From IMG/VR virus record IMGVR_UViG_2728369181_000005: a stretch of DNA of 55,128 bases. The stretch is one strand, 5' to 3'. Origin of the DNA: a virus (taxonomy: Duplodnaviria > Heunggongvirae > Uroviricota > Caudoviricetes). Below are positions 21,615 to 44,776 of the stretch, piece by piece. Positions within the stretch are counted from its first letter, which is position 1. Each line of letters starts with the position of its first letter. Below the pieces are notes generated by a model. It saw only the letters and a list, made by a program, of their open reading frames with translations, had not been told where the DNA came from and made no database searches. Both the position numbers and the translations under genes were made by a program.

Positions 21615-21640
<26 letters not shown>
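21095..21640 (+). CDS. nu1: Terminase small subunit Nu1
   Basis: 181 aa near-identical to lambda Nu1 (MEVNKKQLADIFGASIRTIQNWQEQGMPVLRGGGKGNEV...). Confidence 0.97.
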
Positions 21641-25332
<3,692 letters not shown>

Positions 25333-25352
<20 letters not shown>

Positions 25353-26650
25353 TCTCCCGCATATTGCCAGCATGGCCTTTAATGAGCCGCTGATGCTTGA
25401 ACCCGCCTATGCGCGGGTTTTCTTTTGTGCGCTTGCAGGCCAGCTTGGGATCAGCCGCCTGACGGATGCGGTGTCCGGCGACAGCCTGACTGCCCAGGAG
25501 GCACCCGCGACGCTGGCATTATCCGGTGATGATGACGGACCACGACAGGCCCGCAGTTATCAGGTCATGAACGGCATCGCCGTGCTGCCGGTGTCCGGCA
25601 CGCTGGTCAGCCGGACGCGGGCGCTGCAGCCGTACTCGGGGATGACCGGTTACAACGGCATTATCGCCCGTCTGCAACAGGCTGCCAGCGACCCGATGGT
25701 GGACGGCATTCTGCTCGATATGGACACACCGGGCGGAATGGTGGCGGGAGCATTTGACTGCGCTGACATCATCGCCCGTGTGCGTGACATAAAGCCGGTA
25801 TGGGCGCTGGCCAACGACATGAACTGCAGTGCAGGTCAGCTGCTTGCCAGTGCCGCCTCCCGACGTCTGGTCACGCAGACCGCCCGGACAGGCTCCATCG
25901 GCGTCATGATGGCTCACAGTAATTACGGCGCTGCGCTGGAGAAACAGGGCGTGGAAATCACGCTGATTTACAGCGGCAGCCATAAGGTGGATGGCAACCC
26001 CTACAGCCATCTACCGGATGATGTCCGGGAAACACTGCAGTCCCGGATGGATGCAACCCGCCGGATGTTTGCACAGAAGGTGTCGGCATATACCGGCCTG
26101 TCCGTGCAGGCTGTGCTGGATACCGAGGCTGCAGTGTACCGCGGTCAGGAGGCCATTAATGCCGGACTGGCTGATGAACTTGTTAACAGCACCGATGCGA
26201 TCACCGTCATGCGTGATGCGCTGGATGCACGTAAATCCCGTCTCTCAGGAGGGCGAATGACCAAAGAGACTCAATCAACAACTGTTTCAGCCACTGCTTT
26301 GCAGGCTGACGTTACTGACGTGGTGCCAGCGACGGAGGGTGAAAACGCCAGCGCGGCGCAGCCGGACGTGAACGCGCAGATCACCGCAGCGGTTGCGGCA
26401 GAAAACAGCCGCATTATGGGGATCCTCAACTGTGAGGAGGCTCACGGACGCGAAGAACAGGCTCGCGTGCTGGCAGAAACTCCCGGTATGACCGTGGAAA
26501 CGGCCCGNNNNNNNNNNNNNNNNNNNNNNNNNNNNNNNNNNNNNNNNGTGACACTGCGCTGGATCGTCTGATGCAGGGGGCACCGGCACCGCTGGCTGCA
26601 GGTAACCCGGCATCTGATGCCGTTAACGATTTGCTGAACACACCAGTGTA
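25333..26650 (+). CDS. C: Head protease/scaffold protein C (Nu3 nested in frame)
   Basis: GTG start at 25333 (VTAELRNLPHIASMAF...) as in lambda C; N-run 26508-26547 inside; true stop TAA 26648-26650. Confidence 0.9.
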
Positions 26651-26660
26651 AGGGATGTTT

Positions 26661-26993
26661 ATGACGAGCAAAGAAACCTTTACCCATTACCAGCCGCTGG
26701 GCAACAGTGACCCGGCTCATACCGCAACCGCGCCCGGCGGATTGAGTGCGAAAGCGCCTGCAATGACCCCGCTGATGCTGGACACCGCCACCCGTAAGCT
26801 GGTTGCGTGGGATGGCACCACCGACGGTGCTGCCGTTGGCATTCTGGCGGTTACTGCTGACCAGACCAGCACTACGCTGACGTTCTACAAGTCCGGCACG
26901 TTCCGTTATGAGGATGTGCTCTGGCCGGAGGCTGCCAGCGACGAGACGAAAAAACGGACCGCGTTTGCCGGAACGGCAATCAGCATCGTTTAA
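26661..26993 (+). CDS. D: Head decoration protein D
   Basis: [27 protein letters not shown]... matches lambda gpD. Confidence 0.95.
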
Positions 26994-27048: not shown

Positions 27049-27293
27049 ATGTCGATGTTCACAACCGCCCAGCTGCTGGCGGCAAATGAGCAGAAATTTA
27101 AGTTTGATCCGCTGTTTCTGCGTCTCTTTTTCCGTGAAAGCTATCCCTTCACCACGGAGAAAGTCTATCTCTCACAAATTCCGGGACTGGTAAACATGGC
27201 GCTGTACGTTTCGCCGATTGTTTCCGGTGAGGTTATCCGCTCCCGTGGCGGCTCTACCTCCGAATTTACGCCGGGATATGTCAAGCCGAAGCA
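27049..27293 (+). pseudogene. E: Major capsid protein E, N-terminal fragment (gene split by island insertion)
   Basis: MSMFTTAQLLAANEQKFKFD...GYVKPKH matches the lambda gpE N-terminus, then reads into island DNA and stops at 27324. Confidence 0.9.
27284..27293. repeat. Left copy of 10-bp insertion core AGCCGAAGCA (attL core)
   Basis: Identical 10-mer at 38017-38026; the flanking bases differ, and joining the outer flanks restores a continuous E reading frame (VKPKHEVN). Confidence 0.8.
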
Positions 27294-27402
27294 CTTAGCA
27301 TGGCTTTCTGAGGCTTTCGTGTAGTTGCTGGTTTTTACACTTAATCTTTTGATAATAAAGAGTAAGTTTATCTGGCGCTTTCACTGGATTTTCCTCGTTA
27401 TC

Positions 27403-27441
27403 TGTGTGTTGCAATCATCTCTGTATTGCAGCTTGTATTGC
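27403..27441. repeat. TGT(A/G)TTGCA direct repeats at island left end (candidate integrase arm sites)
   Basis: TGTGTTGCAA, TGTATTGCAG, TGTATTGC within 39 bp just upstream of the island int start; same motif at 37920-37940. Confidence 0.5.
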
Positions 27442-27456
27442 TTTTTGGGGCTAAAA

Positions 27457-28692
27457 ATGGCTGGCGAGAACAAACTGAGCGACAAAGCACTTAAAGGATA
27501 TCTGGGGAAACCTAGAGAAAAGCAGATCACCATTGCTGATGGAAAGGGGCTTTCTATTCGTGTGAGTACCAAGGGGGCTGTGAGCTTTGTTTTCTTCTAC
27601 AGGTTAGCAGGTGGCCGGGCTGCTCCGGTCTGGCTAACGTTGGGTAAATATCCTGATATGTCACTCAAACAGGCAAGGGAAAAGCGCGACGAGTGCCGTG
27701 GTTGGTTGGCTGACAAACGTGATCCGCGTATTCAGATTAAGATTCAGGCTGAAGAACGCTTAAAGCCGGTCACAGTGGAGGATGCACTAAATTACTGGTA
27801 TGAAAATTACTGTAAGGTGCGTCGTAAAACTCATGCTGTAACGCTTGGCAGATTTCGAAAGCATATCTTTCCCTATATCGGTCATTTGCCCGTAAATGAC
27901 ACTCACCTATATGAATGGCTGGACTGTTTTGACCGAATTAAACGTAATGCACCAGTTATGGCGGCGTATGTTTTTTCTGACACTAAATTAGCTCTTCGTT
28001 TTTGTCGGGTACGCCAGTACGCGACGTGTGATGCTTTAAAGGATTTGCGCATGAGTGATGTGGGGCAGATTGCAGGTAAGCGGGATCGGGTTCTGGATGA
28101 AGCCGAACTGGGCCAGCTCTGGAAGGCAATTTTTGTCGAGCCTGATTTAAAACTAATGTCTGAATACACGCGAAAAATGTTTGTGCTTTGTACAGTATTT
28201 GGATGTCGAATGAGTGAAGCCCGATTATCAGAATGGAGCGAATGGGATCTAGAAAGTTGGGTTTGGACTGTACCGAAAGATCACTCAAAAACTGGTGTTG
28301 AAATTGTCAGGCCAGTACCTGAAATTCTACGGCAGTGGGTAACGGATGTTCACGAAGAGACAAAACATACTGGTTATGTGCTGGGAAGTCTGCGAATTAG
28401 AGAAAGCGTAAGCAAGATTGGGGGGAAAATCGGTAAACGTTTGGGCCATGAAAAACAATGGTCACTACACGACCTTAGAAGAACGCTATCTACTCATCTA
28501 AGTGATCTCGGTGTTGAATTTTATGTAGTAGAACAACTGTTAGGCCATGCGCTACCTGGCGTGGCAGGTGTTTACAACCGGAGTAAGTTTATGGCTAAAA
28601 AACTGGATGCTCTGGAACTCTGGACTACATATCTCAATAGCATCGCAGCTGCTGATTCAAAAGTGACAATCCTCAAACAAAAGGCTGGTTAG
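27457..28692 (+). CDS. int: Tyrosine integrase (P4-like family) of the island
   Basis: Start MAGENKLSDKALKGYLGKP...; C-terminal catalytic region with HDLRRT...LGH...Y; first gene at island left end. Confidence 0.88.
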   Translation: MAGENKLSDKALKGYLGKPREKQITIADGKGLSIRVSTKGAVSFVFFYRLAGGRAAPVWLTLGKYPDMSLKQAREKRDECRGWLADKRDPRIQIKIQAEERLKPVTVEDALNYWYENYCKVRRKTHAVTLGRFRKHIFPYIGHLPVNDTHLYEWLDCFDRIKRNAPVMAAYVFSDTKLALRFCRVRQYATCDALKDLRMSDVGQIAGKRDRVLDEAELGQLWKAIFVEPDLKLMSEYTRKMFVLCTVFGCRMSEARLSEWSEWDLESWVWTVPKDHSKTGVEIVRPVPEILRQWVTDVHEETKHTGYVLGSLRIRESVSKIGGKIGKRLGHEKQWSLHDLRRTLSTHLSDLGVEFYVVEQLLGHALPGVAGVYNRSKFMAKKLDALELWTTYLNSIAAADSKVTILKQKAG

Positions 28693-28693
28693 C

Positions 28694-28915
28694 ATGAAAA
28701 AAATGGCAATTGTTGATAAAAAGGGGCTGGAGTACATTCCTAACATTGACCGAATGATCCGTGAGAAAGAATGTCGGGAGCTAACCACTCTTGCGAACAG
28801 CACACGCTGGAAGCTTGAAAAGGAGGGGAAATTCCCCAAGCGAATCAAAATCGGATCTACGGCGGTGGCTTATAGACTCTCTGAGATTCAAGCTTGGATA
28901 AGAGGTGAATGGTAA
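28694..28915 (+). CDS. AlpA-family transcriptional regulator / excisionase-like
   Basis: 73 aa with AlpA-type HTH; directly follows the integrase. Confidence 0.7.
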   Translation: MKKMAIVDKKGLEYIPNIDRMIREKECRELTTLANSTRWKLEKEGKFPKRIKIGSTAVAYRLSEIQAWIRGEW

Positions 28916-28941
28916 GTTAGGGAGGTATTCCTCCCTATATC

Positions 28942-29625
28942 TTACAGGAAATTTTTTAAATCAGGGTTTTTTCCAAATGCGCTCTTATAATATACTGTTG
29001 CAATCTCGTTAAAAATAGTTTTTATATCATCGGTAACCACTATTGTTGCTACGCGCAAATCTTTTTGATATTCATTTAAATCTGGAGGGGTATAGTCCAA
29101 TAGCGTTGATTTATCCAAGATTAAATGTTCTAACATGGCATAGCGCTCAATCAATGTTTTATAAAAATGATATTGATTTTCACTGTTAGCATGTGCACAG
29201 TTTATTGCAAGTAAATACGTTATTTCATTATCTAGATGTGCACGGACAAGGCTTGTATAGGTTTTTTTACGATCTAGATCAAAGGGATGGTATCCAGCAT
29301 TTTCATCAATGAACTTCAATAGATGATATAATATTCTGAAGTAGCTTCCAAAAACAGCATCATGATTGTGCATCAGTGTATTAGTGTCTTTTAAAGAAAC
29401 CAATCCATTCATCATTTTATTAATTAACTCTGAGTAATTTGATTTTTTTCTAAGATCATTTAGAGCATTGTTATGTTGAGATAACATGAGAGAAAATGTT
29501 GATTCAAAAGATGATTGCTTTTTAGCAATTAATGCAACTAACACTGCTGTGCAAGTCCCGAGTGCCACGAAGAAATTTATAATGTTTGATGCAGTGAATA
29601 CAGCATCGTCAGGAGTTGGAGTCAT
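28942..29625 (-). CDS. Hypothetical AT-rich membrane-anchored protein (candidate accessory/defence gene)
   Basis: 227 aa; N-terminal hydrophobic helix FFVALGTCTAVLVALIA; very AT-rich; follows the small regulator at 29658-29852 on the same strand. Confidence 0.45.
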   Translation of the reverse strand: MTPTPDDAVFTASNIINFFVALGTCTAVLVALIAKKQSSFESTFSLMLSQHNNALNDLRKKSNYSELINKMMNGLVSLKDTNTLMHNHDAVFGSYFRILYHLLKFIDENAGYHPFDLDRKKTYTSLVRAHLDNEITYLLAINCAHANSENQYHFYKTLIERYAMLEHLILDKSTLLDYTPPDLNEYQKDLRVATIVVTDDIKTIFNEIATVYYKSAFGKNPDLKNFL

Positions 29626-29657
29626 TTGAATATCCTATTCAATAAAAATTAAAAAAA

Positions 29658-29852
29658 TTAGCCTTTAGGTTCTATACCTTTACGGCGAAGCTCAGCACGA
29701 ACTAATTCTTTAATCCAATTGGCCAAGCTCATTCCTTCCTGAGCTGCTGATTCAGCCATCTGTTCTTTGAGTTCAGGATTGATTCGGATCTGAAACGCAG
29801 GGGCTTTGCCGGCTCCTTTTGGCTGCTTATCTCTTTGAATTGTAGTTGACAT
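29658..29852 (-). CDS. Small ribbon-helix-helix-like DNA-binding protein
   Basis: 64 aa; FQIRINPELKEQMAESAAQEGMSLANWIKELV fits an RHH (Arc/CopG-like) pattern. Confidence 0.45.
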   Translation of the reverse strand: MSTTIQRDKQPKGAGKAPAFQIRINPELKEQMAESAAQEGMSLANWIKELVRAELRRKGIEPKG

Positions 29853-29988
29853 GTGTGTACCTATTGCTTAGCATCAGTGTTGAATAGGTACACACATTAA
29901 CATGATGTTATACCTATAAACAACGCCCTAGGGTGCTCGCAACACACCTAGGGCGTCTAACCACAAACCGTTAACTGGAGTAACGACT

Positions 29989-30354
29989 ATGGCTGGAACA
30001 CAGCATACCCAAACTCACCCTAAATTTATATACATCTTTCTGGCGCTACATCGCGATCGCATAGCAGATGGAGCAACTACGGTACATGTAGCCGCTGACA
30101 CGCTGGTTGATGCGCGCAAGATGGTTAAGGAGATGGGCTATACTGCGGCTTTCTGGAAAGGGCGGGAAGAAAACACGCTGTTTATTCAGAAATGTGAAAA
30201 CAATTTCATCTGGCGTTTTATCGCCCTGAGTACGGCACAACCGCGCGTGATTACCATCGAGGCCACCAGCGAACAGGAAGCCCGCCAGCAATCCCCAACT
30301 GGCTGCGTGATGATATTCGCCGCCCGTATTCGTCAGGAGGTGTGCCATGAATGA
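29989..30354 (+). CDS. Hypothetical protein (possibly Icd-like)
   Basis: 121-codon ORF at the start of the island rightward operon; Icd-like assignment is from memory and weak. Confidence 0.3.
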   Translation: MAGTQHTQTHPKFIYIFLALHRDRIADGATTVHVAADTLVDARKMVKEMGYTAAFWKGREENTLFIQKCENNFIWRFIALSTAQPRVITIEATSEQEARQQSPTGCVMIFAARIRQEVCHE

Positions 30355-30571
30355 TCTTTATTTTAAAGTGCTGACACATGCTGAAAACGCGCTCGTTTGT
30401 GGCAAAAATATGCGAGAAATCTTATCAACCTGGCTTGATGGGACAACAAATGCGGAACACGATGAACGGGATGCTAATTTAGCTGGAGCGTTAATTACGT
30501 TACTTGATCCTGTCATCAAAGAGTTGGATGAAGCTATAAAAATACACGACCAGAGCTATACCGGAGAATAA
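30347..30571 (+). CDS. Hypothetical protein
   Basis: 74-codon ORF overlapping neighbours. Confidence 0.35.
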   Translation: MNDLYFKVLTHAENALVCGKNMREILSTWLDGTTNAEHDERDANLAGALITLLDPVIKELDEAIKIHDQSYTGE

Positions 30572-30574
30572 AAA

Positions 30575-30862
30575 ATGAAAAATAAATTTTCTGGCTTTAT
30601 TGCCAGCGGTCAAACTCATTCAAAAATCAGCCTTGGGGATATTTTCAAAGACAGCTATGGCTATCGGGTAAAGATTATTTCGGTTGATGATCGTCGTGTC
30701 TCTTATTTGCGTGATGGTTATGATTTTGAATGTGTTATGCCGCGTCAGCAGTTCGAAAGAGATTTCATTCTGGTAAAAAATTGCAAGACAGATAATCAGA
30801 GGCGTGCCGCAGGCTATATCCGTAAAATTCGGGCAATGTTAGTTGCCGGAGGTAACAAATGA
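30575..30862 (+). CDS. Hypothetical protein
   Basis: 95-codon ORF; ATGA overlap with the primase gene. Confidence 0.35.
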   Translation: MKNKFSGFIASGQTHSKISLGDIFKDSYGYRVKIISVDDRRVSYLRDGYDFECVMPRQQFERDFILVKNCKTDNQRRAAGYIRKIRAMLVAGGNK

Positions 30863-32679
30863 AACGTGCTCCGAACTTAAAATACCAACCGCGCGACAAA
30901 ATGACGGAAGTCATCATTTTTGCTGGCAGTGATGCCTGGAGCCATGCAAAAGAATGGAATGAATGGGCAGGTAAGCATATTGCAGCAGATGATACACCAC
31001 CAGTCATTCTGGGTACGGAACAACTGGAAAACCTGGATGATATGCAAATTATCGATGAAGGCCGTCATTATGTGCGTGTTTATCGTGCCGGAAAGATTGC
31101 AGAGAAAAGTCTGACGAAGGTTGCGACATTACTTGCTATTGCAGGCGTAAAGGAAGCACGTTGTTACCGTAGCTTTGTTGATCGAGAGCCTGAAGACTGG
31201 ACTCCGCGCCTTGTCGGCCTAAAAGCTGAAGCGGAGCATGGGGAAAGTCTGGTGATTGAACTGCCAGTGAAGAAGGCAGAGCGCAAAAATGACGAGCGTG
31301 CTTCATCTTTGGCGTTGAATCAGATGGGGGCCAGCCAGCGCGGTGAAGTTCTCCTTGCACATTACGGCGGCGAACTGGCAATCAATGCCGACTCTGACAC
31401 CGTTCATCATTACAACGGCGTTGTATGGGAGCCGGTTCAGGATAAAGAGTTACAGCGTGCTATGGCGCAGATTTTCATTGATGCGGAGATCAGCTATTCG
31501 CAGAACGCTATTAAATCGGCGGTAGATACCATGAAGTTAAGTTTGCCTGTAATGGGGAATACAGCCCGTAACCTGATTGGATTCAGTAACGGGGTATTTG
31601 ATACCAGAACTGGTAATTTTCGGGAGCATAACAAAAACGACTGGTTGTTAATTGCCAGTGAATTACCTTTCAGCCCACCAGCAGAGGGGGAAACGCTGGC
31701 AACACATGCGCCGAATTTCTGGAAGTGGTTGCGCCGTTCGGTGGCTGATAATGACCGCAAGGCAGATCGCGTACTGGCGGCATTATTCATGGTGCTGGCG
31801 AACCGGTACGACTGGCAGTTATTCATTGAGGTAACAGGGCCGGGGGGAAGTGGTAAAAGTGTGATGGCGGAGATTTGCACCATGCTGGCGGGTAAGGCGA
31901 ATACAGTATCAGCAAGCATGAAGGCGCTGGAAGATGCAAGGGAACGTGCGTTAGTGGTTGGCTTTTCGCTGATTATCATGCCGGATATGACCCGCTACGC
32001 TGGTGATGGGGCAGGGATTAAGGCCATTACAGGCGGTGACAAGGTGGCAATTGACCCGAAACACAAAGCCCCCTATTCAACGCGTATTCCGGCAGTAGTG
32101 CTGGCGGTTAACAATAACGCCATGTCATTCAGTGACCGCAGCGGGGGGATCTCACGTCGTCGGGTGATATTCAATTTTTCGGAAGTTGTACCGGAGAACG
32201 AACGCGATTCGATGCTGGCGGAAAAAATAGAAGGTGAGCTGGCGGTAGTGATTCGCCATCTGCTTACACGGTTTGCTGATCAGGACGAAGCCAGACGCCT
32301 GTTATATGAGCAGCAGAAATCTGAAGAAGCACTGGCGATAAAGCGAGAGGGGGATTCGCTGGTGGACTTCTGCGGCTATCTCATGGCATCGGTAATGTGT
32401 GATGGCCTGTTAGTGGGTAATGCTGAAATTGTGCCATTCAGCCCACGCAGGTATCTCTATCATGCCTATCTGGCTTATATGAGGGCACATGGGTTTGGTA
32501 AACCTGTAACACTGACGCGCTTCGGTAAAGATATGCCGGGGGCAATGGCGGAATATGGCAGGGAGTATATGAAACGGAAAACGAAGCACGGTTTGCGTTC
32601 AAACGTGACACTGACGGAGGAATCAGAAGACTGGATGCCATCATGTGTATCGGTCACTAATGACGATAGCAAAAATTAA
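30859..32679 (+). CDS. Primase-helicase (P4 alpha-like replication protein)
   Basis: 606 aa; Walker A GPGGSGKS and Walker B-like FSLIIMPDM in the C-terminal half; followed by an iteron array. Confidence 0.85.
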   Translation: MKRAPNLKYQPRDKMTEVIIFAGSDAWSHAKEWNEWAGKHIAADDTPPVILGTEQLENLDDMQIIDEGRHYVRVYRAGKIAEKSLTKVATLLAIAGVKEARCYRSFVDREPEDWTPRLVGLKAEAEHGESLVIELPVKKAERKNDERASSLALNQMGASQRGEVLLAHYGGELAINADSDTVHHYNGVVWEPVQDKELQRAMAQIFIDAEISYSQNAIKSAVDTMKLSLPVMGNTARNLIGFSNGVFDTRTGNFREHNKNDWLLIASELPFSPPAEGETLATHAPNFWKWLRRSVADNDRKADRVLAALFMVLANRYDWQLFIEVTGPGGSGKSVMAEICTMLAGKANTVSASMKALEDARERALVVGFSLIIMPDMTRYAGDGAGIKAITGGDKVAIDPKHKAPYSTRIPAVVLAVNNNAMSFSDRSGGISRRRVIFNFSEVVPENERDSMLAEKIEGELAVVIRHLLTRFADQDEARRLLYEQQKSEEALAIKREGDSLVDFCGYLMASVMCDGLLVGNAEIVPFSPRRYLYHAYLAYMRAHGFGKPVTLTRFGKDMPGAMAEYGREYMKRKTKHGLRSNVTLTEESEDWMPSCVSVTNDDSKN

Positions 32680-32690
32680 ACTTATGGAAT

Positions 32691-32916
32691 AACTGTTCAC
32701 CACTGTTCACCCTGTCATAAATATCTTTTATATCAGTATATTATAGGGTGAACAGTTATTTATGAACTGTTCACCAAACTATTCACTGTTCACCTTTTTG
32801 ATTGTTTATTGAGCTTCAAGGGTGAACAGTGGTGAACAGTTGGTGAATAGTTTTTGTGAAACTGTTCACCCATTAACATTATGAATTAAAAGAGAAAATA
32901 TCAAAAGGTGAACAGG
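32691..32916. repeat. Island replication-origin iterons
   Basis: About ten copies of ACTGTTCACC / GGTGAACAGT in both orientations immediately after the primase stop. Confidence 0.8.
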
Positions 32917-32966
32917 TGAAGGGTTAAAACGCAAAAATTTTAATTTACTGCTGTGAGATAAAGCCT

Positions 32967-33212
32967 ATGACAGCGAAGCACACAAAAAAATCACAATCGC
33001 ACGCCCTTGATTTGACGGAACACTGGTTAAGGGTGTCGATAAAAATCATCGACCGCAACGCCGGGGAAGGATACGCGAAAGCACATCCCGAACTGATTAG
33101 CGCATTCATGACAACGGCGGCTGCAAACTTTGCCACTCTGACCGAACGGGAGATTGCTGAAGCGGAGGAAGTGACAACAATCAATATTAAGTCCGGAGAG
33201 CAGGCAGCATGA
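32967..33212 (+). CDS. Hypothetical protein
   Basis: 81-codon ORF after the iteron array. Confidence 0.35.
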   Translation: MTAKHTKKSQSHALDLTEHWLRVSIKIIDRNAGEGYAKAHPELISAFMTTAAANFATLTEREIAEAEEVTTINIKSGEQAA

Positions 33213-33658
33213 CGGCGCAAATATCAGTTTACGGGCGGTTGGTGGACGACCCGCAGACAAAACAGACCAGCAAGGGCACCCCCATGACGCTGGCGCGTAT
33301 GGCGGTATCACTGCCCTGCAGTCAGTCGGATGACGGTCAGGCGACGATGTGGTTATCTGTCCTGGCGTTTGGCAGACAAGCCGACGCACTGGCAAAGCAT
33401 CACAAAGGCGAACTCCTGAGCGTGGCGGGTAACATGCAGATGAGCCAGTGGACTGGACAGAACGGCGAAACGCGGCAGGGCTGGCAGGTTATCGCAGACA
33501 GCGTAATCAGTGCGCGATCGGTGCGACCGGGCGGCAAAAAAGGCCAACAGGGGCAGGCTACTGACGCACTGAACAGAGCAAAACAACAGGCAGATCAGCA
33601 AGGAAGCCAGCCACCAGTGGGAGATAATGAGCAATGGGGAGATGATATCCCGTTTTAA
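33209..33658 (+). CDS. Single-stranded DNA-binding protein (SSB-like)
   Basis: N-terminal OB-fold pattern ISVYGRLVDDP...ARMAVSL...WLSVLAFG; Gln/Gly-rich tail ending DDIPF. Confidence 0.7.
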   Translation: MTAQISVYGRLVDDPQTKQTSKGTPMTLARMAVSLPCSQSDDGQATMWLSVLAFGRQADALAKHHKGELLSVAGNMQMSQWTGQNGETRQGWQVIADSVISARSVRPGGKKGQQGQATDALNRAKQQADQQGSQPPVGDNEQWGDDIPF

Positions 33659-33875
33659 ATATTGCCAATAAAAAAAGGCCGGAAAAAATAAATTTTCCGG
33701 CATGCTACATAAATCCCGACCAAAGGGAGTGAAGATATTAACACTAATTGTCCGCACTGAAGTTGTCACCCCAAAACTTTATACAACATTGCACTTGGTT
33801 GCATGTGTTCGCATGACAAATATCGGTGGTAGCATATATCCACAATTATTTTTAATGAATGCAAAGAGGATGCGT

Positions 33876-34916
33876 ATGGTTGATTTATATTCGCCTACTC
33901 AGCTTGTACAGGTGGTTAATGCTGTAGATGTACAAAAACAACTAAATGCGTTGTTTACCAGTTTGTTTTTTACTCGCTCGGTAATGTTTGAATCGCGCGA
34001 TATTATTCTTGATACAATCGACGATCCAAATATCCCAATTGCAGCGTTTTGTTCTCCTATGGTGGGTAGTAAAGTTTCACGTGACGAAGGGTACGAATCA
34101 AAAACAATTCGTCCAGGCTATATGAAGCCGAAAAGCAGCATTGATCCAAATAAGTTAGCTGTGCGCCCTGCTGGTGTATCACCTGAGCAATACAATGCTT
34201 TTGGGGCGCGTAATATTAAAGTTAAACAGGCGATTGTAAATCAAGCTAAAGCTATTCGTGCACGTATTGAATGGCTTGCTGTTCAGGCAATCACAACGGG
34301 GAAAAATATCATTGAGGGCGATGGTATTGAACGTTATGAGCTGGACTGGAATATTAAACCACAAAATATCATCACTCAGTCTGGCGGTGCTGAGTGGTCA
34401 GGTAAGGATAAAGAAACTTTTGATCCAAATGATTATATTGAGAGCTACGCAGAATTTAGTGAGGGCGTCACTAATATTATCATTATGGGCGGTAATGTAT
34501 GGAAGAAATACCGTTCATTCAGAGCAATAAAAGAGGCTCTGGATACCCGTCGTGGTTCTAATTCCGAACTGGAAACGGCCCTTAAAGACCTTGGTGATTC
34601 GGTGAGTTTTAAAGGGTATATGGGCGATGTTGCGATTGTTGTTTACAGCGGGCGTTATACCGACGAGGACGGAACAGAAAAACATTTCCTTGATCCTGAT
34701 TTGATGGTGCTTGGCAATACGGCTCTTCAGGGGATTGTCGCCTATGGCGGTGTTCAGGATCCGGAGCTAATCCGAATGGGGCTGACTAAAGCCGAACTTG
34801 CACCGAAAAACTATATTGTGCCTGGTGATCCGGCTATTGAATATGTGCAGACACATTCAGCACCACAGCCAATACCGGCCCGCATCAATCGTTTTGTTAC
34901 CGTTCGCATTGGCTAA
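33876..34916 (+). CDS. Island-encoded major capsid protein (lambda gpE-like)
   Basis: AAGAGGA SD before ATG 33876; aligns with lambda E (GYMKPK vs GYVKPK; ITQSGGAEWSGKDKETFDPNDYIESYA; DTRRGSNSELETA; GDVAIVVYSG). Confidence 0.8.
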   Translation: MVDLYSPTQLVQVVNAVDVQKQLNALFTSLFFTRSVMFESRDIILDTIDDPNIPIAAFCSPMVGSKVSRDEGYESKTIRPGYMKPKSSIDPNKLAVRPAGVSPEQYNAFGARNIKVKQAIVNQAKAIRARIEWLAVQAITTGKNIIEGDGIERYELDWNIKPQNIITQSGGAEWSGKDKETFDPNDYIESYAEFSEGVTNIIIMGGNVWKKYRSFRAIKEALDTRRGSNSELETALKDLGDSVSFKGYMGDVAIVVYSGRYTDEDGTEKHFLDPDLMVLGNTALQGIVAYGGVQDPELIRMGLTKAELAPKNYIVPGDPAIEYVQTHSAPQPIPARINRFVTVRIG

Positions 34917-34925
34917 GGGGGAGCA

Positions 34926-35267
34926 ATGGCTACTCATTACACTGAACTCATGGCTGGCACTGAAGCACTGGTGACTACGCTGGGGATATTTTCAGCTAAT
35001 AAAGGGGTAATTCCTGCATTTACGCCACTGATGCAGGAAGATGCAACAGGTGCACTGGTGGTATGGGATGGTTCGAGCGTAGGTAAAGCGGTTTATGTTT
35101 CCGCTGTACAAATCGACACCGCGAAAAAAACACAGGCTCAGGTCTATAAGACAGGTGTCTTAAATGTTGATGCTCTGAACTGGCCTGAGTCTGTTAAAGA
35201 ACTGTCAGTAAAGGTTGCAGCGTTTGTTGGCTCAGGTATTTCTGTTCAGCCGCTGGCTCGTGTGTAA
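34926..35267 (+). CDS. Island-encoded decoration protein (lambda gpD-like)
   Basis: 113 aa; LVVWDGSSVGKAV parallels lambda [14 protein letters not shown]; same length class. Confidence 0.6.
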   Translation: MATHYTELMAGTEALVTTLGIFSANKGVIPAFTPLMQEDATGALVVWDGSSVGKAVYVSAVQIDTAKKTQAQVYKTGVLNVDALNWPESVKELSVKVAAFVGSGISVQPLARV

Positions 35268-35278
35268 AGGGGGATACA

Positions 35279-35662
35279 ATGCAGAATGATTACAATGACC
35301 TTAAGCCAATTGCCGAAATGATGTACCCGAATCCAGCTGTAGAGGAATTAAAAGCTATCGCTGACAAAATGTGTTTAAGCGAGCGCCTTGTTGATATGAA
35401 TCAGGTGATGGAAATTACAACCCTGAGTCGTCGTACACTGCTAAACCTTGAGGCTAGTGGAGAGTTCCCGGAGCGTGTGCAGGTTACGGAAGGGCGTAAG
35501 GCCTGGTATTTAAGTGAAGTGATCGACTGGATAAATAATATTCCTCGCGCTTCTGAATATTGCCGCGTACCTGTCCCAAAAAAGCCAGATGCGGCGCTAT
35601 GCCTCAAGATTGAGCGTGTACGCCGCAATGCACGGGATGGTCGCTATAAGCTGATTGGTTGA
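35279..35662 (+). CDS. AlpA-type HTH domain protein (possible packaging/regulatory factor)
   Basis: 127 aa; C-terminal half carries an AlpA-like HTH (MNQVMEITTLSRRTLLNLEASGEFPERV). Confidence 0.5.
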   Translation: MQNDYNDLKPIAEMMYPNPAVEELKAIADKMCLSERLVDMNQVMEITTLSRRTLLNLEASGEFPERVQVTEGRKAWYLSEVIDWINNIPRASEYCRVPVPKKPDAALCLKIERVRRNARDGRYKLIG

Positions 35663-35689
35663 TGAAATTAGGGCCCGCTCTGGCTGGCG

Positions 35690-35770
35690 GGTCCTTTCCG
35701 GTGATCCAGAACGTTACGGGGCGTCAGGCGCGCGGGTTTTCGCTATTTATGAGCATTTTAAGGGGACTGG
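35690..35770. other. Island cos-like site with divergent cosN core (35718-35729)
   Basis: GGTCCTTTCCGGTGATCCAGAACGTTACG|GGGCGTCAGGCG|CGCGGGTTTTCGCTATTTATGA: flanks match the prophage cos, the 12-nt core differs at about five positions. Confidence 0.7.
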
Positions 35771-35878
35771 TGGTGGTTTTGTTGTTCGCTATATCTGTAT
35801 GAATAATAAGAGAAAAATACAATCAATACACCAACCTGAAACAGTAATTAAGTTGTGGTATCAATGAAATTACACCTG

Positions 35879-36406
35879 ATGAACAAAAAAAACATGGCAA
35901 AAAGTTGCCGTGTAAGCGCCACTGCGTTCGATAAGTGGGGAGTGATTCCCGTCGAGCGTAAGGGCCGTGAGGCGTTCTATGATGTTGCCAGTGTAATAGA
36001 TAATCGGGTTAACAATGCAATCAGCCAGATTACAAACGAAACGGGCGATATTGATGACGATGAACTTTTACGCGTCAGGATCAGATTACTGACAGCACAG
36101 GCAGAGGCGCAGGAGCTTAAAAACGAGCGCGAACGCGGCGACGTTATTGATACAGAGTTTTGTATGTATGTTCTTTCCAAACTGGCGAGTCAGATTTCAT
36201 CTATCATGGACAGCCTGCCGCTTACCATGCAAAGGCGCTTCCCACAGATGACTCCGGCTATGCTGGATGGACTTAAAAAGGAAGTGGCTAAAGCCTGTAA
36301 TGCCAGTGCCGGCGTTGCTGACAACCTCCCACAGATACTGGCTGATTATCTGATGGAAAGTACAGGAAACGTACCGGATAAGTTGCAGCTGAATAAGGAT
36401 AAGTAA
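35879..36406 (+). CDS. Island small terminase (Nu1-like, diverged)
   Basis: Aligns with lambda Nu1 (VIPVERKGREAFYDV vs MPVLRGGGKGNEVLYD; AQAEAQELKNERERGDVIDTEFC vs AQADAQELKNARDSAEVVETAFC); start codon choice (35864/35879/35894) uncertain. Confidence 0.7.
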   Translation: MNKKNMAKSCRVSATAFDKWGVIPVERKGREAFYDVASVIDNRVNNAISQITNETGDIDDDELLRVRIRLLTAQAEAQELKNERERGDVIDTEFCMYVLSKLASQISSIMDSLPLTMQRRFPQMTPAMLDGLKKEVAKACNASAGVADNLPQILADYLMESTGNVPDKLQLNKDK

Positions 36407-36417
36407 CGTAGTACGCT

Positions 36418-36693
36418 ATGACTGAATCCGAACTACTGAAAGTAATCTGCCATGCTGGTGGAGTCAGCCACCAGCATGACGAACAGGCCACGCAGCCGGG
36501 CAGTGTCACCGCTGAAAATTACGCTCGTGTGGTTGCTGAGGTTATGTGGCGTGACGGTATAGAACTGAACGGACAGGATTGCTTAGTCATCCGCACCAAA
36601 GTGCTGGCTATACTGGCAGCTAGGCGGAGGCAGGGACAACGCCAGAACGTTGCATCGTACCAGTGGAAGAAGCCTGACAGACTGCGGCGATAA
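36418..36693 (+). CDS. Hypothetical protein
   Basis: 91-codon ORF following the TerS-like gene. Confidence 0.35.
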   Translation: MTESELLKVICHAGGVSHQHDEQATQPGSVTAENYARVVAEVMWRDGIELNGQDCLVIRTKVLAILAARRRQGQRQNVASYQWKKPDRLRR

Positions 36694-37095
36694 CTCTTTG
36701 ATTTTCTCGACGGCCCCAAAATGGGCCTTACCATAGCCAGCTAATAAATGAGCAAGCCTCAAAAGTGAGGTTTGTGGCCGTTTGGCCTATTCATATGCTA
36801 ACTCGTTGATATTCCTGACGACGCAAATTTACGCCTTGTGGCTGGTAGTCGAATTGCAAATTTGCAACTCGACTATGAAACTACAGGTAGTTTGGGTAGT
36901 AAAAGCAACACACTGATTTTGGGGCTTCTTCGCGATACCTAATATTATGGTATCGGTGGAAGAGATATCGTTTCTCATAGGTTAGCACCGAGGGCGGAGT
37001 TCCGCCCTCATCGAAAAATTGCTTACGAGTCGTCAAAATAAATTAATCGACTGAGTATAATGATTAACTAATTGCTCGTGTTACTTCATTATACG

Positions 37096-37857
37096 TTATT
37101 TCCCATCTTTAAGGTTTAACCAAGTGTTAATTAAAAAAAGAGCCATTGAGCCTGATAAATTTACTGCAAGTTCGGCATGCCTTGGGGATGGCTTAATTGA
37201 TGAGCTGTTCGTTCCATGTGCATCACCGAGTTTATTACGAAGAGTACCTAACCCATTTACAACTGCAGAACAACCGCCGAGAATTTGTTTGAAGATATTT
37301 TCAGTATGTTGGTCGGCAGATAGGTTAAGTTCTTTTGAAAGAGTTTTATAAAGCTCTGACATTTCAATATTTTTATTATTATACTGAATGCCCATATCAT
37401 CAAGAATGTGTTTGCAAACTGTTTCAAGAAGTGTTCTTGCGGAGGTTATCGCACCATCCGGATCTGTATGGCGCCGTTCAAGTGCTTTTATCCAAACGGC
37501 GTGGACTCCATCCTCGTTAAACTTTCTTAATACATCAGATATGTCTTCATCCGCTGGAGCTTTATTTTTCCCTTCTAGATAGTCCAGCATCGGCTGAAAT
37601 GCCTTATAAATCAAATCTCTCCGGGGGGCATACTTTTCAGTCTTTTTTATAAATCCCCAAAATTCTTTTAGTGAGCGATTAGTTCTCACAAACTCTGGTA
37701 ATAGCTGATGTAAAGGAGGATTTTGTAAGAAATATGTTCTTAGAAGCAAATAATCATTATTAGCTTCATCCTGGGCTCCTGTAGCTCTTGCAATTAGTAT
37801 GTTTTGAAGCGCTACTGCGCGCTCTAGGTCATTTTGAAGGGTATCTATAATATTCAT
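37096..37857 (-). CDS. Abortive-infection-like protein (Abi_C/HEPN-type motif)
   Basis: 253 aa, AT-rich, opposite strand at the island right end; C-terminal GTLRNKLGDAHG (R-x6-H) matches the Abi_C/HEPN signature as recalled. Confidence 0.6.
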   Translation of the reverse strand: MNIIDTLQNDLERAVALQNILIARATGAQDEANNDYLLLRTYFLQNPPLHQLLPEFVRTNRSLKEFWGFIKKTEKYAPRRDLIYKAFQPMLDYLEGKNKAPADEDISDVLRKFNEDGVHAVWIKALERRHTDPDGAITSARTLLETVCKHILDDMGIQYNNKNIEMSELYKTLSKELNLSADQHTENIFKQILGGCSAVVNGLGTLRNKLGDAHGTNSSSIKPSPRHAELAVNLSGSMALFLINTWLNLKDGK

Positions 37858-37919
37858 AACAAATCTTTATTCACTTCATTTGTGGGTTGATAATTGAATG
37901 GTTTGTACATTGATTTCTG

Positions 37920-37940
37920 TGTATTGCAGTGTGTATTGCA
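37920..37940. repeat. TGTATTGCA direct repeats at island right end
   Basis: TGTATTGCAG and TGTATTGCA, same orientation as the left-end copies. Confidence 0.5.
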
Positions 37941-38016
37941 ACATAGCCATTCAGGTAGAGATTATGCTCTATTTTTCCTCTTATATCATTCACATACTTA
38001 CACCATTGACTCATGT

Positions 38017-38026
38017 AGCCGAAGCA
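38017..38026. repeat. Right copy of 10-bp insertion core AGCCGAAGCA (attR core)
   Basis: Identical to 27284-27293. Confidence 0.8.
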
Positions 38027-38807
38027 TGAGGTGAATCCGCAGATGACCCTGCGTCGCCTGCCGGATGAAGATCCACAGAATCTGGCGGATCCGGCTTACC
38101 GTCGCCGTCGCATCATCATGCAGAACATGCGTGACGAAGAGCTGGCCATTGCCCAGGTCGAAGAGATGCAGGCAGTTTCTGCCGTGCTTAAGGGCAAATA
38201 CACCATGACCGGTGAAGCCTTCGATCCGGTTGAGGTGGATATGGGCCGCAGTGCGGCGAACAACATCACGCAGTCCGGCGGTACGGAGTGGAGCAAGCGT
38301 GACAAGTCCACGTATGACCCGACCGACGATATCGAAGCCTACGCGCTGAACGCCAGCGGTGTGGTGAATATCATCGTGTTCGATCCGAAAGGCTGGGCGC
38401 TGTTCCGTTCCTTCAAAGCCGTCAGGGAGAAGCTGGATACCCGTCGCGGCTCTCATTCTGAGCTGGAGACAGCGGTGAAAGACCTGGGTAAAGCGGTGTC
38501 CTATAAGGGGATGTATGGCGATGTGGCCATCGTCGTGTATTCCGGACAGTACGTGGAAAACGGTGTCAAAAAGAACTTCCTGCCGGACAACACGATGGTG
38601 CTTGGGAACACTCAGGCACGCGGTCTGCGCACCTATGGCTGTATTCAGGATGCGGATGCATTGAGTGAGGGTATTAATGCGTCTCCCCGTTATCCGAAAA
38701 ACTGGAAGACATCCGGCGATCCGGCGCGTGAGTTCACCATGATTCAGTCAGCACCGCTGATGCTGCTGGCTGATCCTGATGAGTTCGTGTCCGTACAACT
38801 GGCGTAA
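38020..38807 (+). pseudogene. E: Major capsid protein E, C-terminal fragment
   Basis: PKHEVNPQMTLRRLPDEDPQNL... to ...DEFVSVQLA matches lambda gpE from residue ~83 onward; no start of its own. Confidence 0.9.
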
Positions 38808-42193: not shown

Positions 42194-44776
42194 ACCGGTA
42201 GGCGATCTGGTCGTTGATTTGAGTCTGGATGCGGCCAGATTTGACGAGCAGATGGCCAGAGTCAGGCGTCATTTTTCCGGTACGGAAAGTGATGCGAAAA
42301 AAACAGCGGCAGTCGTTGAACAGTCGCTGAGCCGACAGGCGCTGGCTGCACAGAAAGCGGGGATTTCCGTCGGGCAGTATAAAGCCGCCATGCGTATGCT
42401 GCCTGCACAGTTCACCGACGTGGCCACGCAGCTTGCAGGCGGGCAAAGTCCGTGGCTGATCCTGCTGCAACAGGGTGGTCAGGTTAAGGACTCCTTCGGC
42501 GGGATGATCCCCATGTTCCGGGGGCTTGCCGGTGCGATCACCCTGCCGATGGTGGGGGCCACCTCGCTGGCGGTGGCGACCGGTGCGCTGGCGTATGCCT
42601 GGTATCAGGGCAACTCAACCCTGTCCGATTTCAACAAAACGCTGGTCCTTTCCGGCAATCAGGCGGGACTGACGGCAGATCGTATGCTGGTCCTGTCCAG
42701 AGCCGGGCAGGCGGCAGGGCTGACGTTTAACCAGACCAGCGAGTCACTCAGCGCACTGGTCAAGGCGGGGGTAAGCGGTGAGGCTCAGATTGCGTCCATC
42801 AGCCAGAGTGTGGCGCGTTTCTCCTCTGTATCCGGCGTGGAGGTGGACAAGGTCGCTGAAGCCTTCGGGAAGCTGACCACAGACCCGACGTCGGGGCTGA
42901 CGGCGATGGCACGCCAGTTCCATAACGTGACGGCGGAGCAGATTGCGTATGTTGCTCAGTTGCAGCGTTCCGGCGATGAAGCCGGGGCATTGCAGGCGGC
43001 GAACGAGGCCGCAACGAAGGGGTTTGATGACCAGACCCGCCGCCTGAAAGAGAACATGGGCACGCTGGAGACCTGGGCAGAGAGGACAGCGCGGGCATTC
43101 AAATCCATGTGGGATGCGGTGCTGGATATTGGTCGTCCTGATACCGCGCAGGAGATGCTGATTAAGGCAGAGGCTGCGTTTAAGAAAGCAGACGACATCT
43201 GGAATCTGCGCAAGGATGATTATTTTGTTAACGATGAAGCGCGGGCGCGTTACTGGGATGATCGTGAAAAGGCCCGTCTTGCGCTTGAAGCCGCCCGAAA
43301 GAAGGCTGAGCAGCAGACTCAACAGGACAAAAATGCGCAGCAGCAGAGCGATACCGAAGCGTCACGGCTGAAATATACCGAAGAGGCGCAGAAGGCTTAC
43401 GAACGGCTGCAGACGCCGCTGGAGAAATATACCGCCCGTCAGGAAGAACTGAACAAGGCACTGAAAGACGGGAAAATCCTGCAGGCGGATTACAACACGC
43501 TGATGGCGGCGGCGAAAAAGGATTATGAAGCGACGCTGAAAAAGCCGAAACAGTCCGGCGTGAAGGTGTCTGCGGGCGATCGTCAGGAAGACAGTGCTCA
43601 TGCTGCCCTGCTGACGCTTCAGGCAGAACTCCGGACGCTGGAGAAGCATGCCGGAGCGAATGAGAAAATCAGCCAGCAGCGCCGGGATTTGTGGAAGGCG
43701 GAGAGTCAGTTCGCGGTACTGGAGGAGGCGGCGCAACGTCGCCAGCTGTCTGCACAGGAGAAATCCCTGCTGGCGCATAAAGATGAGACGCTGGAGTACA
43801 AACGCCAGCTGGCTGCACTTGGCGACAAGGTCACCTATCAGGAGCGCCTGAACGCGCTGGCGCAGCAGGCGGATAAATTCGCACAGCAGCAACAGGCAAA
43901 ACGGGCCGCCATTGATGCGAAAAGCCGGGGGCTGACTGACCGGCAGGCAGAACGGGAAGCCACGGAACAGCGCCTGAAGGAACAGTATGGCGATAATCCG
44001 CTGGCGCTGAATAACGTCATGTCAGAGCAGAAAAAGACCTGGGCGGCTGAAGACCAGCTTCGCGGGAGCTGGATGGCAGGCCTGAAGTCCGGCTGGAGTG
44101 AGTGGGAAGAGAGCGCCACGGACAGTATGTCGCAGGTTAAAAGTGCAGCCACGCAGACCTTTGATGGTATTGCACAGAATATGGCGGCGATGCTGACCGG
44201 CAGTGAGCAGAACTGGCGCAGCTTCACCCGTTCCGTACTGTCCATGATGACAGAAATTCTGCTTAAGCAGGCAATGGTGGGGATTGTCGGGAGTATCGGC
44301 AGCGCCATTGGCGGGGCTGTTGGTGGCGGCGCATCCGCGTCAGGCGGAACAGCCATTCAGGCAACTGCGGCGNNNNNNNNNNNNNNNNNNNNNNNNNNNN
44401 NNNNNNNNNNTTTGCGACCGGGGGATTTACGGGAACCGGCGGCAAATATGAGCCAGCGGGGATTGTTCACCGTGGTGAGTTTGTCTTCACGAAGGAGGCA
44501 ACCAGCCGGATTGGCGTGGGGAATCTCTACCGGCTGATGCGCGGCTATGCCACCGGTGGTTATGTCGGTACACCGGGCAGTCTGGCTGACAGCCGGTCGC
44601 AGGCGTCCGGGACGTTTGAGCAGAATAACCATGTGGTGATTAACAACGACGGCACGAACGGGCAGATAGGTCCGGCTGCTCTGAAGGCGGTGTATGACAT
44701 GGCCCGCAAGGGTGCCCGTGATGAAATTCAGACACAGATGCGTGATGGTGGCCTGTTCTCCGGAGGTGGACGATGA
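42186..44776 (+). CDS. H: Tape measure protein H (interrupted by an assembly gap)
   Basis: Long coiled-coil protein matching lambda gpH; N-run 44373-44410 breaks the apparent frame; C-terminus continues to 44776. Confidence 0.9.

Follow-up and report, generated by a model that had tools for sequence, protein, structure and literature searches.

The window analysed here, a 55,128-nt stretch of DNA, contains a lambdoid prophage, referred to below as the helper, whose lambda-like gene E is interrupted by a 10.7-kb island (positions 27284-38026). When the 5′ fragment of helper gene E (codons 1-82, 27049-27293, + strand) and the 3′ fragment (38027-38807, + strand) were joined, an intact 341-aa lambda-type gpE was restored. 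At attL the fusion of helper E reads nine foreign codons and then a stop, and no replacement sequence for the interrupted gene is present, as in the published site E:Phage_cap_E:80. The attL sequence (27284-27293) is a 10-bp identity block, AGCCGAAGCA, covering E codons K79-H82 and equal to the block published for 11capE, and its second copy, attR, lies at 38017-38026. The motif TGTATTGCA is found at 27422, followed by the near-copy TTGTATTGC, and again at 37920 and 37932, forming the doubled motif that flanks the attP core. Five other E. coli records (four strains) contain 99.1-99.6% identical copies, annotated alike, with "major capsid protein" appearing three times; carriers of the element include strains AST216, SCU-101 and C 237-04.

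The integrase, alpA, primase, SSB and late-module genes of the island all lie on the + strand, the same as the helper late operon, and three small cargo or regulatory genes lie on the − strand (28942-29625, 29658-29852 and 37096-37857). A tyrosine integrase (27457-28692), assigned by Arm-DNA-bind_3 and Phage_integrase matches and by the RefSeq annotation of a 99.6% identical copy, is followed by an AlpA regulator/excisionase (28694-28915; Phage_AlpA, E=1.4e-15), by the D5-type primase/helicase of the replication zone (30859-32679; D5_N/Pox_D5 profile matches) and by a single-strand DNA-binding protein, SSB (33209-33658; profile match). At 32693-32925 the iteron GGTGAACAGT recurs about 11 times, in either orientation; because PICI origins sit just 3′ of pri (PMC6092414), these iterons probably mark the island replication origin. 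Apart from the capsid, decoration and terminase homologues, the ORFs encode the integrase, AlpA, two Abi-like proteins, YlcI/YnfO, Icd-like and DUF4222 proteins, the primase, the SSB, an AlpA-like HTH protein and small unknowns. Defence cargo comprises putAbiC and AbiJ-like genes, the AbiJ/Abi_C-like gene at the right end (37096-37857, − strand) being recognized by a profile match, and variants of the island carry a TIR gene. Profile searches and RefSeq annotation of all island ORFs revealed no portal, protease, TerL, tail, holin or connector gene, which bears out an earlier sequence-only reading of this DNA as to the portal, protease and TerL. When 32600-38100 was scanned for promoters and terminators, the number of sites did not exceed that in shuffled sequence.

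The late module runs in the order E-like, D-like, HTH, cos, Nu1-like TerS and a 91-aa ORF. Its segment beginning with the start of the E-like ORF and ending with the stop of TerS coincides exactly with positions 33876-36406, to which the sequence-only reading had assigned diverged homologues of lambda gpE, gpD and Nu1; profile searches, which could have shown these ORFs to be unrelated to such families, matched them to Phage_cap_E, HDPD and Phage_Nu1. The 346-aa E-like major capsid protein homologue (WP_001560457.1; 33876-34916, + strand) matched Pfam Phage_cap_E (E=1.2e-39), the PHROG major head protein family (E=3e-90) and, among capsid proteins of solved structure, 3BQW (E=5.9e-120) and 7VI9, the lambda gpE (E=5.5e-75), sequence matches by which we take its fold as settled, and was 41% identical over 338 aa to the product of the rejoined helper gene E. 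The 113-aa D-like head decoration protein homologue (WP_000190773.1; 34926-35267, + strand) matched Pfam HDPD (E=4.5e-15), PHROG head decoration (E=1.3e-25) and, in the PDB, phage 21 SHP 1TD0 and lambda gpD 1C5E, with 39% identity to helper D. These full-length profile and solved-structure sequence matches place the two proteins in the gpE and gpD families. Their order is the inverse of that in lambda, as had been noticed, and of that in the helper, where D (26655-26993) precedes E (27049 onward).

The third homologue, a full-length Nu1-family small terminase (TerS; 35864-36406, + strand), measures 180 aa from the RefSeq start or 183 aa from a GTG at 35855. It matched Pfam Phage_Nu1 (E=1.1e-24) and PHROG small terminase (E=3.2e-53) and aligned with helper Nu1 (21095-21640) at 36% identity over 179 aa, essentially its full length; together with the position of the gene just 3′ of cos, these matches identify a lambda Nu1-type small terminase. 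Among PICIs, conservation is 91-98% in the first 55 aa but 57-76% in the C-terminal third, a pattern that fits a DNA target that stays constant and TerL partners that differ. A 127-aa AlpA/MerR-like HTH protein (35279-35662, + strand), recognized by profile matches and conservation, is kept together with the module. Downstream of terS, a conserved 91-aa protein (36418-36693, + strand) is 55% identical to the ORF after rppA in the PICI EcCICFT073; TerS, located between cos and this gene, thus occupies the Rpp slot. RppA, RppB and RppC are proteins of 144-153 aa with a wHTH and a coiled-coil dimer. Neither the Nu1-like ORF, which aligned over its full length to Nu1 instead, nor the 127-aa HTH protein showed BLASTP similarity to RppA, and a PDB search with both returned no match to the Rpp entries 6HLK and 6HN7, so that we rejected an Rpp identity for either. 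A 70-aa ORF at 35655-35867 is probably not a gene despite a match to phrog_11159 (E=1.5e-44), since it overlies cos and lacks RefSeq annotation.

The island cos core (35689-35752, + strand) consists of the cosQ box GGGTCCTTTCC, a variant cosN, GGGCGTCAGGCG (35719-35730), and the conserved right flank CGCGGGTTTTCGCTATTTATGA, and lies about 130 bp 5′ of the terS gene in the lambda layout. For comparison we used the helper cos and Nu1 (20876-21640, + strand), which include an exact lambda cosN at 20906-20917 and a lambda-type cosB; the two cos sites were 83% identical over 71 bp (helper 20876-20946). Alignment of seven cos regions defined a putative island cosB of the GGTGGTGGTTT type (35753-35863, + strand), which differs from helper cosB and is otherwise common only to TerS-bearing PICIs. 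Across the seven loci, the cosB type co-varied with the downstream gene, be it TerS, Rpp or neither: one cosB is common to four TerS-bearing islands, the TerS-less sibling form of the element (locus L005) has a helper-type cosB (205 bp, 89%), and the Rpp-type EcCICFT073 (locus L006) has a third type. This co-variation suggests that packaging-specificity cassettes are exchanged modularly at cosN, which adds modestly, and in a testable way, to what is known of Rpp. The earlier proposal that the island has its own packaging specificity finds support in a cos directly 5′ of the terS gene and, after this cos, a putative cosB that differs from that of the helper, and island-specific packaging by its own TerS and cosB appears well supported at the sequence level.

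In the mechanism that we propose, helper late transcription would run on into the co-oriented island, and Int and AlpA would excise the island, restoring helper E. We infer that TerS binds both the island cosB, via its N-terminal winged helix, and the helper large terminase gpA, which its C-terminal segment would recruit. Helper gpA would then cut the island cosN and package island concatemers, four island units (42.9 kb) filling a lambda-sized head, although cutting at this site is not assured because 5 of the 12 overhang positions differ between the island and helper cosN. Here the complete TerS would serve the functional slot held by Rpp in EcCICFT073.

Comparison of copies gave dN/dS values of 0.04-0.2 for E, D, HTH and TerS, and of 0.04-0.13 where the copies were 83-98% identical in nucleotide sequence, indicating purifying selection on the module and contradicting the status of a pseudogene or relic. 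Helper-gene capture is known for PICI late zones (PMC10111431) and deletions of homologues gave null phenotypes, as one might expect if the genes were decaying, currently functionless remnants of a captured helper head-gene cluster; however, every ORF is intact and full length, gene order is kept across genera, and the protein folds, judging from the crystal structure 3BQW of a 54% identical homologue. With the low dN/dS, we regard such decay as extremely improbable and as effectively refuted by the selection analysis.

Further copies of this module were seen in chromosomal PICIs, in one island inserted into portal gene B, and in Kluyvera, Superficieibacter and Kosakonia; the Kosakonia island, located at the gene-E site, encodes an 88.6% identical integrase. 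In the portal-gene-B island, E-D-HTH-cos-TerS showed ~92% nucleotide identity across the whole module, and helper E and D are intact there. A taxonomic-spread scan of genome contigs with the E-like protein yielded three loci only, too few for statistics. Among 50,697 phage records, the best phage match was 41% identical for E and 47% for TerS, and the E-like lineage has so far been found in satellites only. We rejected the idea that the helper around the island had recently donated E, D and Nu1: identities to the helper are only 36-41%, the order is inverted, and phage records gave matches of no more than 41-47%.

This distribution bears on the proposal of Tommasini et al. (10.1101/2022.07.18.500453) that the island E is a backup copy, replacing the split helper E until excision restores it. 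The helper E is indeed split by an island that holds an intact homologue, yet the same module is present in chromosomal PICIs and in the portal-gene-B island with its intact helper E and D, the present island carries a D as well although helper D is intact, and the E/D lineage is only ~40% identical to helper E and D, arguing that the pair was not recently captured from the interrupted gene. We therefore consider a backup role improbable.

As a whole, the region is very probably best explained as the packaging (late) module of a PICI that is embedded in its helper and belongs to the published 11capE / E:Phage_cap_E:80 type. Among the features by which SatelliteFinder recognizes PICIs, we found the integrase at the island end, AlpA beside int, a primase with an adjacent origin, and a capsid homologue together with a small terminase; with every island ORF accounted for, no other phage structural or lysis genes were present. 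Membership in the capsid-forming PICIs (cf-PICIs) was rejected, as the portal, prohead protease, head-tail adaptor/connector and TerL are not island-encoded. As defined by de Sousa et al. (2023, PMC10085698), the proteobacterial PICI core consists of an integrase, AlpA, a primase, a capsid homologue and TerS, and 21 of 29 reference Gram-negative PICIs have a capsid gene (PMC10111431). The Gram-negative model PICI EcCICFT073 likewise has an E-like gene followed by a D-like one (PMC6092414; Fillol-Salom et al. 2018, 2019); its c1499, the protein of 3BQW, is 54% identical to the island E, and c1500 is its decoration homologue. An island type inside gene E with its own capsid gene had been described as E:Phage_cap_E:80 or 11capE from 201 instances, and virions were not recovered from the 11capE strain of that study (Tommasini et al. 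2023, 10.1101/2022.07.18.500453). The element is therefore already described, its three genes are its standard late module, and the finding is a rediscovery of the canonical Gram-negative PICI late module in a published helper-embedded satellite type. The sequence-only reading had placed the island midway from classic PICIs to capsid-forming satellites. Contrary to that reading, a capsid homologue and terS without other structural genes are the published PICI core (PMC10085698), the same E/D pair is found in EcCICFT073 (PMC6092414), and the type is known as 11capE; no novel kind of element is defined.

We consider it unlikely that the island belongs to a new class intermediate between PICIs and cf-PICIs, in which its E-like and D-like proteins form their own, possibly smaller, lattice on the helper portal and packaging proceeds via its own TerS. 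Cement proteins of the gpD kind work, as is established for lambda, solely on a lattice that has assembled and expanded, and the retention of D therefore hints that the E-like protein assembles; E and D are, moreover, a matched pair under strong purifying selection, and their lineage is without a close phage relative. The PICI PmCI172, which encodes a capsid homologue, produces capsids of small size (PMC6092414). Against this, the gene set is the canonical PICI core of a published element type, monomer sequence or fold gives no T-number, and in EcCICFT073 the DNA packaged was of phage size and deletion of c1499 or c1500 left transfer and interference unaltered, so that a structural role of E and D is dispensable there. 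The same deletions speak against the E-like and D-like subunits poisoning or misdirecting capsid assembly of the helper or of competing lambdoid phages, in the manner of Ccm of SaPIbov5 or of assembly-blocking prophage proteins: interference with lambda, whose mapped source is RppA, persisted when c1499 or c1500 was lost, and PADLOC gave no match for E, D, HTH or TerS. Interference with helpers is common among PICIs, the SaPIbov5 capsid homologue being an instance (PMC6092414), and defence cargo is otherwise plentiful in the island, but we judge such interference to have a low probability.

Our best guess is that the island E-like and D-like proteins are true structural shell and cement proteins, which would be usable with the helper portal, scaffold and protease and, in the laboratory, would be redundant with their helper counterparts E and D. 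Tentatively, and with less than even confidence, we speculate that a satellite-specific E-like/D-like pair, conserved whatever the integration site, builds satellite shells on the helper portal, scaffold and protease, with TerS, Rpp and helper-cosB mimicry as three interchangeable cassettes swapped at cosN. If shells are satellite-made, the "classic" E. coli PICIs would be partial capsid-formers, the null deletions in EcCICFT073 would reflect redundancy with helper E and D, and in gene-E-embedded islands the pair would make heads before helper E is restored. The capsid and decoration homologues of PICIs are strongly constrained and without a close relative in the 50,697 phage records, yet the sole deletions tested were phenotype-free, and in the literature we found no functional follow-up on PICI E/D proteins or HE-PICIs. 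An island that sits in gene E and brings its own E, D, cos and TerS offers a good natural setting for the study of E/D function, since helper E is unavailable until excision.

Several known systems resemble parts of this arrangement. P4 is likewise an enterobacterial satellite of ~11 kb with a related integrase/primase organisation and its own capsid-stabilising decoration protein, Psu; however, it is not known to have a capsid-protein or TerS homologue, its Sid is an external scaffold, and its helper is P2-like. The cf-PICI EcCIEDL933 (Alqurainy et al. 2023) shares satellite-encoded capsid and small-terminase homologues, but cf-PICIs have their own portal, protease, head-tail adaptor, connector and TerL, and tails are all that they borrow from the helper. 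The cos-packaged SaPIbov5 encodes Ccm, a capsid homologue of the helper major capsid protein, without a portal, and in pac SaPIs a satellite TerS pairs with the helper TerL and redirects packaging; these elements are, by contrast, Gram-positive and unrelated in sequence, and capsid-size redirection was shown for Ccm, whereas a like effect of the E. coli E-like proteins is hypothetical.

The late zone of EcCICFT073 has the layout of the island late module: a capsid homologue, a decoration homologue, a single small gene, cos, a gene for packaging specificity and a homologous 91-93-aa gene (55%). In contrast to the prophage-embedded island, EcCICFT073 is chromosomal beside phoQ, an unrelated gene separates D from cos, its cosN is of the lambda type, and its post-cos slot is filled not by a complete TerS but by RppA, a 144-aa protein that binds the helper TerS. 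Also among the closest is 11capE, an 11-kb island lying inside a lambda-like gene E and oriented like it, with a 10-bp identity block near codon 80, int-alpA, a primase, an E-family capsid gene of its own, a doubled motif by att and no E replacement sequence. The published type element, however, is said to be without terS and to have 258 bp (90%) of cos in common with its helper, whereas the present island shares only ~71 bp of cosQ/cosN with its helper and has a different cosB and a full-length Nu1-type TerS. Beyond the published type, our analysis adds the island cos, the co-variation of cosB, the TerS in the Rpp slot, the purifying selection, the presence of the module at other sites and its lack of a close phage relative.

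The span 33876-36406 of the island takes in three ORFs in the same orientation. The first (33876-34916, 346 aa) matched Pfam Phage_cap_E (E=1.2e-39) and the PHROG major head protein (E=3e-90), and among solved structures 3BQW, a 'putative capsid protein of prophage' (E=5.9e-120), and lambda gpE (7VI9, E=5.5e-75). The second (34926-35267, 113 aa) matched HDPD, the lambda gpD family of Pfam (E=4.5e-15), and PHROG head decoration (E=1.3e-25), with phage 21 SHP and lambda gpD as its structural matches, and the third (35855/35864-36406, 183/180 aa) matched Phage_Nu1 (Pfam, E=1.1e-24) and PHROG small terminase (E=3.2e-53). Identity to the helper counterparts was 36% for Nu1 (21095-21640; over 179 aa, near full length), 39% for D (26655-26993) and 41% for the product of the split gene E, and E precedes D in the island, whereas in the helper D precedes E. 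These matches bear out the sequence-only reading, which had proposed diverged gpE, gpD and Nu1 homologues, the first two in inverted order, and an island devoid of portal, protease and TerL; none of the latter was found among all island ORFs, the remainder being accounted for as integrase, AlpA, putAbiC-like, YlcI/YnfO, Icd-like, DUF4222, D5-type primase, SSB, an AlpA-like HTH, an AbiJ-like protein and four small unknowns.

What stands out most at this locus, absent from that reading and already published as the layout of helper-embedded PICIs (HE-PICIs), is that the island lies within the helper's major capsid gene E. Joining 27049-27293 (5′) to 38027-38807 (3′) restores an intact 341-aa lambda-type gpE, and the 10-bp block AGCCGAAGCA is present at both junctions (27284-27293 and 38017-38026), defining a 10,733-bp island inserted at codons 79-82. 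No replacement sequence for E was found at the junction, where the attL fusion ends after nine foreign codons; because gene E is split at AGCCGAAGCA, helper E is expressible only once the island is excised. A doubled TGTATTGCA motif close to both island ends (27422-27441 and 37920-37940) probably corresponds to the doubled motif at attP that was reported to be found in HE-PICIs alone; it may serve as an integrase arm site. The int, alpA, primase, SSB and late module genes share the orientation of the late operon, with three small cargo/regulatory genes on the opposite strand, and the iteron GGTGAACAGT occurs about 11 times, in either orientation, at 32693-32925 just 3′ of the primase gene, the place expected of the PICI replication origin that these copies would form. 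Two low-GC abortive-infection-type cargo genes, putAbiC (28942-29625, minus strand; Pfam 2.8e-16) and an Abi_C/AbiJ-like gene (37096-37857, minus strand; Pfam 1.3e-23, PADLOC 2.2e-21), occupy the two variable spots, which hold a TIR-domain or BRO-N gene in related islands. Five further complete E. coli records, from four strains, have a near-identical island (99.1-99.6%) in the same split gene, and at least 80% of the island together with its junctions is present in 45 genomes.

The rest of the window appears to be a complete lambdoid prophage, with a lambda-type integrase (1-1143), an S24 repressor, O/P-type replication genes, Nu1, A, portal, protease, D and tail genes. Of five masked N runs (23001-23059, 26508-26547, 44373-44410, 46934-46997 and 49881-49984), the first splits the large-terminase gene A into 489-aa and 156-aa pieces, its only interruption, and the second falls in the protease/scaffold gene; TerL is intact in the strain AST216 prophage, which carries a 99.6% identical island copy. 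The apparent breaks in helper genes are masking artefacts rather than signs of a defective helper. Next to the repressor lies a HipA_2 kinase and DUF3037 gene pair (5556-7132, minus strand) matching the PADLOC candidate defence system PDC-M66A/B. Upstream of the lysis and packaging genes, on the opposite strand, is a porin gene (16167-17309, minus strand; Porin_1 E=2e-151), a lysogenic-conversion cargo gene whose position resembles that of the prophage-borne ompC of the CFT073 icd prophage.

A local comparison of island and helper returned a single non-coding match (83%), between island 35689-35759 and helper cos 20876-20946, which contains the GGGTCCTTTCC box, cosN (35719-35730) and the conserved right flank CGCGGGTTTTCGCTATTTATGA. 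Helper similarity stops after this flank and the TerS gene begins about 130 bp further on; the cosQ-cosN-cosB-Nu1 layout is thus that of lambda with a different cosB. Compared with the exact lambda cosN of the helper, GGGCGGCGACCT (20906-20917), the island overhang GGGCGTCAGGCG is different at 5 of 12 positions; positions 1-5, 7 and 11 are kept and both flanks are conserved. This variant also occurs in L005 (NZ_CP128888.1), a TerS-less sibling in gene E, whereas L004, L006, L007 and L008, at other sites, retain a lambda-type cosN. A 70-aa ORF over the cos site (35655-35867) matches phrog_11159 over its whole length (E=1.5e-44) but lacks RefSeq annotation; the members of this family may be ORF predictions over conserved cos DNA and not true proteins.

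In an alignment of seven cos regions, the cosB type tracked the downstream gene. A GGTGGTGGTGGTTT-type cosB is common to the four TerS-bearing PICIs, namely this island, the chromosomal O157:H7 PICI L004, L007 inside portal gene B and the chromosomal PICI L008 at abgR/smrA, and the Rpp-type EcCICFT073 has a third type. L005, whose right-end cargo is a TIR-domain gene, is 99% identical to the island across E-D-HTH as far as cosN, after which 10016-10260 holds a helper-type cosB (205 bp, 89% to helper) and no TerS, as against window 35753-36406; this comparison suggests that packaging cassettes are swapped by recombination at cosN. TerS proteins of PICIs share 91-98% identity over their first 55 residues but only 57-76% over the C-terminal third. 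The N-terminal region of Nu1 is a DNA-binding winged helix, and the C-terminal third of lambda Nu1 contacts gpA. We infer that island TerS would read island cosB and recruit helper TerL, conferring packaging specificity through SaPI-TerS rather than Rpp logic. The anatomy (a cos directly ahead of TerS, with a cosB unlike the helper's) supports well the earlier proposal that the island's packaging specificity would be its own.

For E, D and HTH, dN/dS was 0.04-0.08 across copies at 93-98% nucleotide identity, and for TerS it was 0.10-0.22; on these values, the capsid and decoration homologues are not relics. Among 50,697 phage records, no relative exceeded 41% (E) or 47% (TerS, phage N15), so that recent capture from the helper was also rejected. 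The inverted E-D order is common to all satellite copies seen. A simple spare for the interrupted helper E is not what the module represents, since it also occurs in an island at another helper gene and in chromosomal PICIs: L007 (NZ_CP100486.1, 975-13556) carries E-D-HTH-cos-TerS within portal gene B beside intact helper E and D, so the presence of the capsid module does not depend on the helper gene that is disrupted, and the chromosomal L004 and L008 carry the same module. Kluyvera, Superficieibacter and Kosakonia also have it (E identity 84-86%), the Kosakonia copy again within gene E.

Judged by lambda biology, the retention of a cement protein that matches it suggests that the E-like product assembles into an expanded lattice. 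The only experiments, on EcCICFT073, speak against a necessary structural role: deleting its capsid or decoration homologue (c1499 or c1500) changed neither interference, which maps to RppA, nor transfer, and with lambda as helper all packaged EcCICFT073 DNA was phage-sized. A literature search for later functional work on PICI E/D homologues found none. At 42.9 kb, four copies of the island would suffice to fill a head of lambda size, and hypothetical smaller shells would take one or two; this arithmetic cannot discriminate between head sizes. We favour the view that the E-like and D-like products truly are shell and cement proteins, made redundant in the laboratory by those of the helper, and consider an island-built capsid lattice a rather unlikely, minority possibility.

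Taking these observations together, the earlier interpretation is partly supported, in its gene identities and packaging specificity and not in its new class, intermediate between PICIs and capsid-forming PICIs (cf-PICIs). The element is already known, a published HE-PICI type carrying the canonical PICI core. 'Eco567.11capE', which is organised like a PICI and has an att identity block of 10 bp and a doubled motif close to attP, was described at site E:Phage_cap_E:80, with 201 instances (Tommasini, Mageeney and Williams, NAR Genom Bioinform 2023, PMC10111431; bioRxiv 10.1101/2022.07.18.500453), and the island shows every testable 11capE feature: insertion at codons 79-82, the doubled motif at both ends and main genes that run in the direction of the late operon. 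According to the publication, 11capE is without terS and has 258 bp of cos in common with its helper, a description that the structure of L005 fits. What is added is modest: a TerS-bearing HE-PICI variant with a cosB of its own, a cassette-like alternation at cosN of TerS, Rpp and helper-cosB mimicry, and evidence for the E/D pair as a constrained lineage, independent of integration site and found here in satellites only.

The gene set that had seemed unusual is the textbook PICI set: integrase, regulator, primase-replicase, capsid-morphogenesis gene and small terminase, no further structural gene being allowed (De Sousa et al. 2023, PMC10085698), capsid genes being present in 21 of 29 reference Gram-negative PICIs (PMC10111431). 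Lacking portal, protease, connectors and TerL, the island is not a cf-PICI. EcCICFT073, which we located adjoining phoQ in CFT073 (L006), has a 351-aa capsid homologue, the length of the 3BQW chain, that is 54% identical to the island's, and the same E-then-D order; because of this shared pair and the textbook core, an intermediate class is not supported. TerS and RppA have no detectable sequence similarity, but the 91-aa ORF that follows island TerS shares 55% identity with the one that follows rppA, and TerS and RppA therefore fill the same slot in the two islands.
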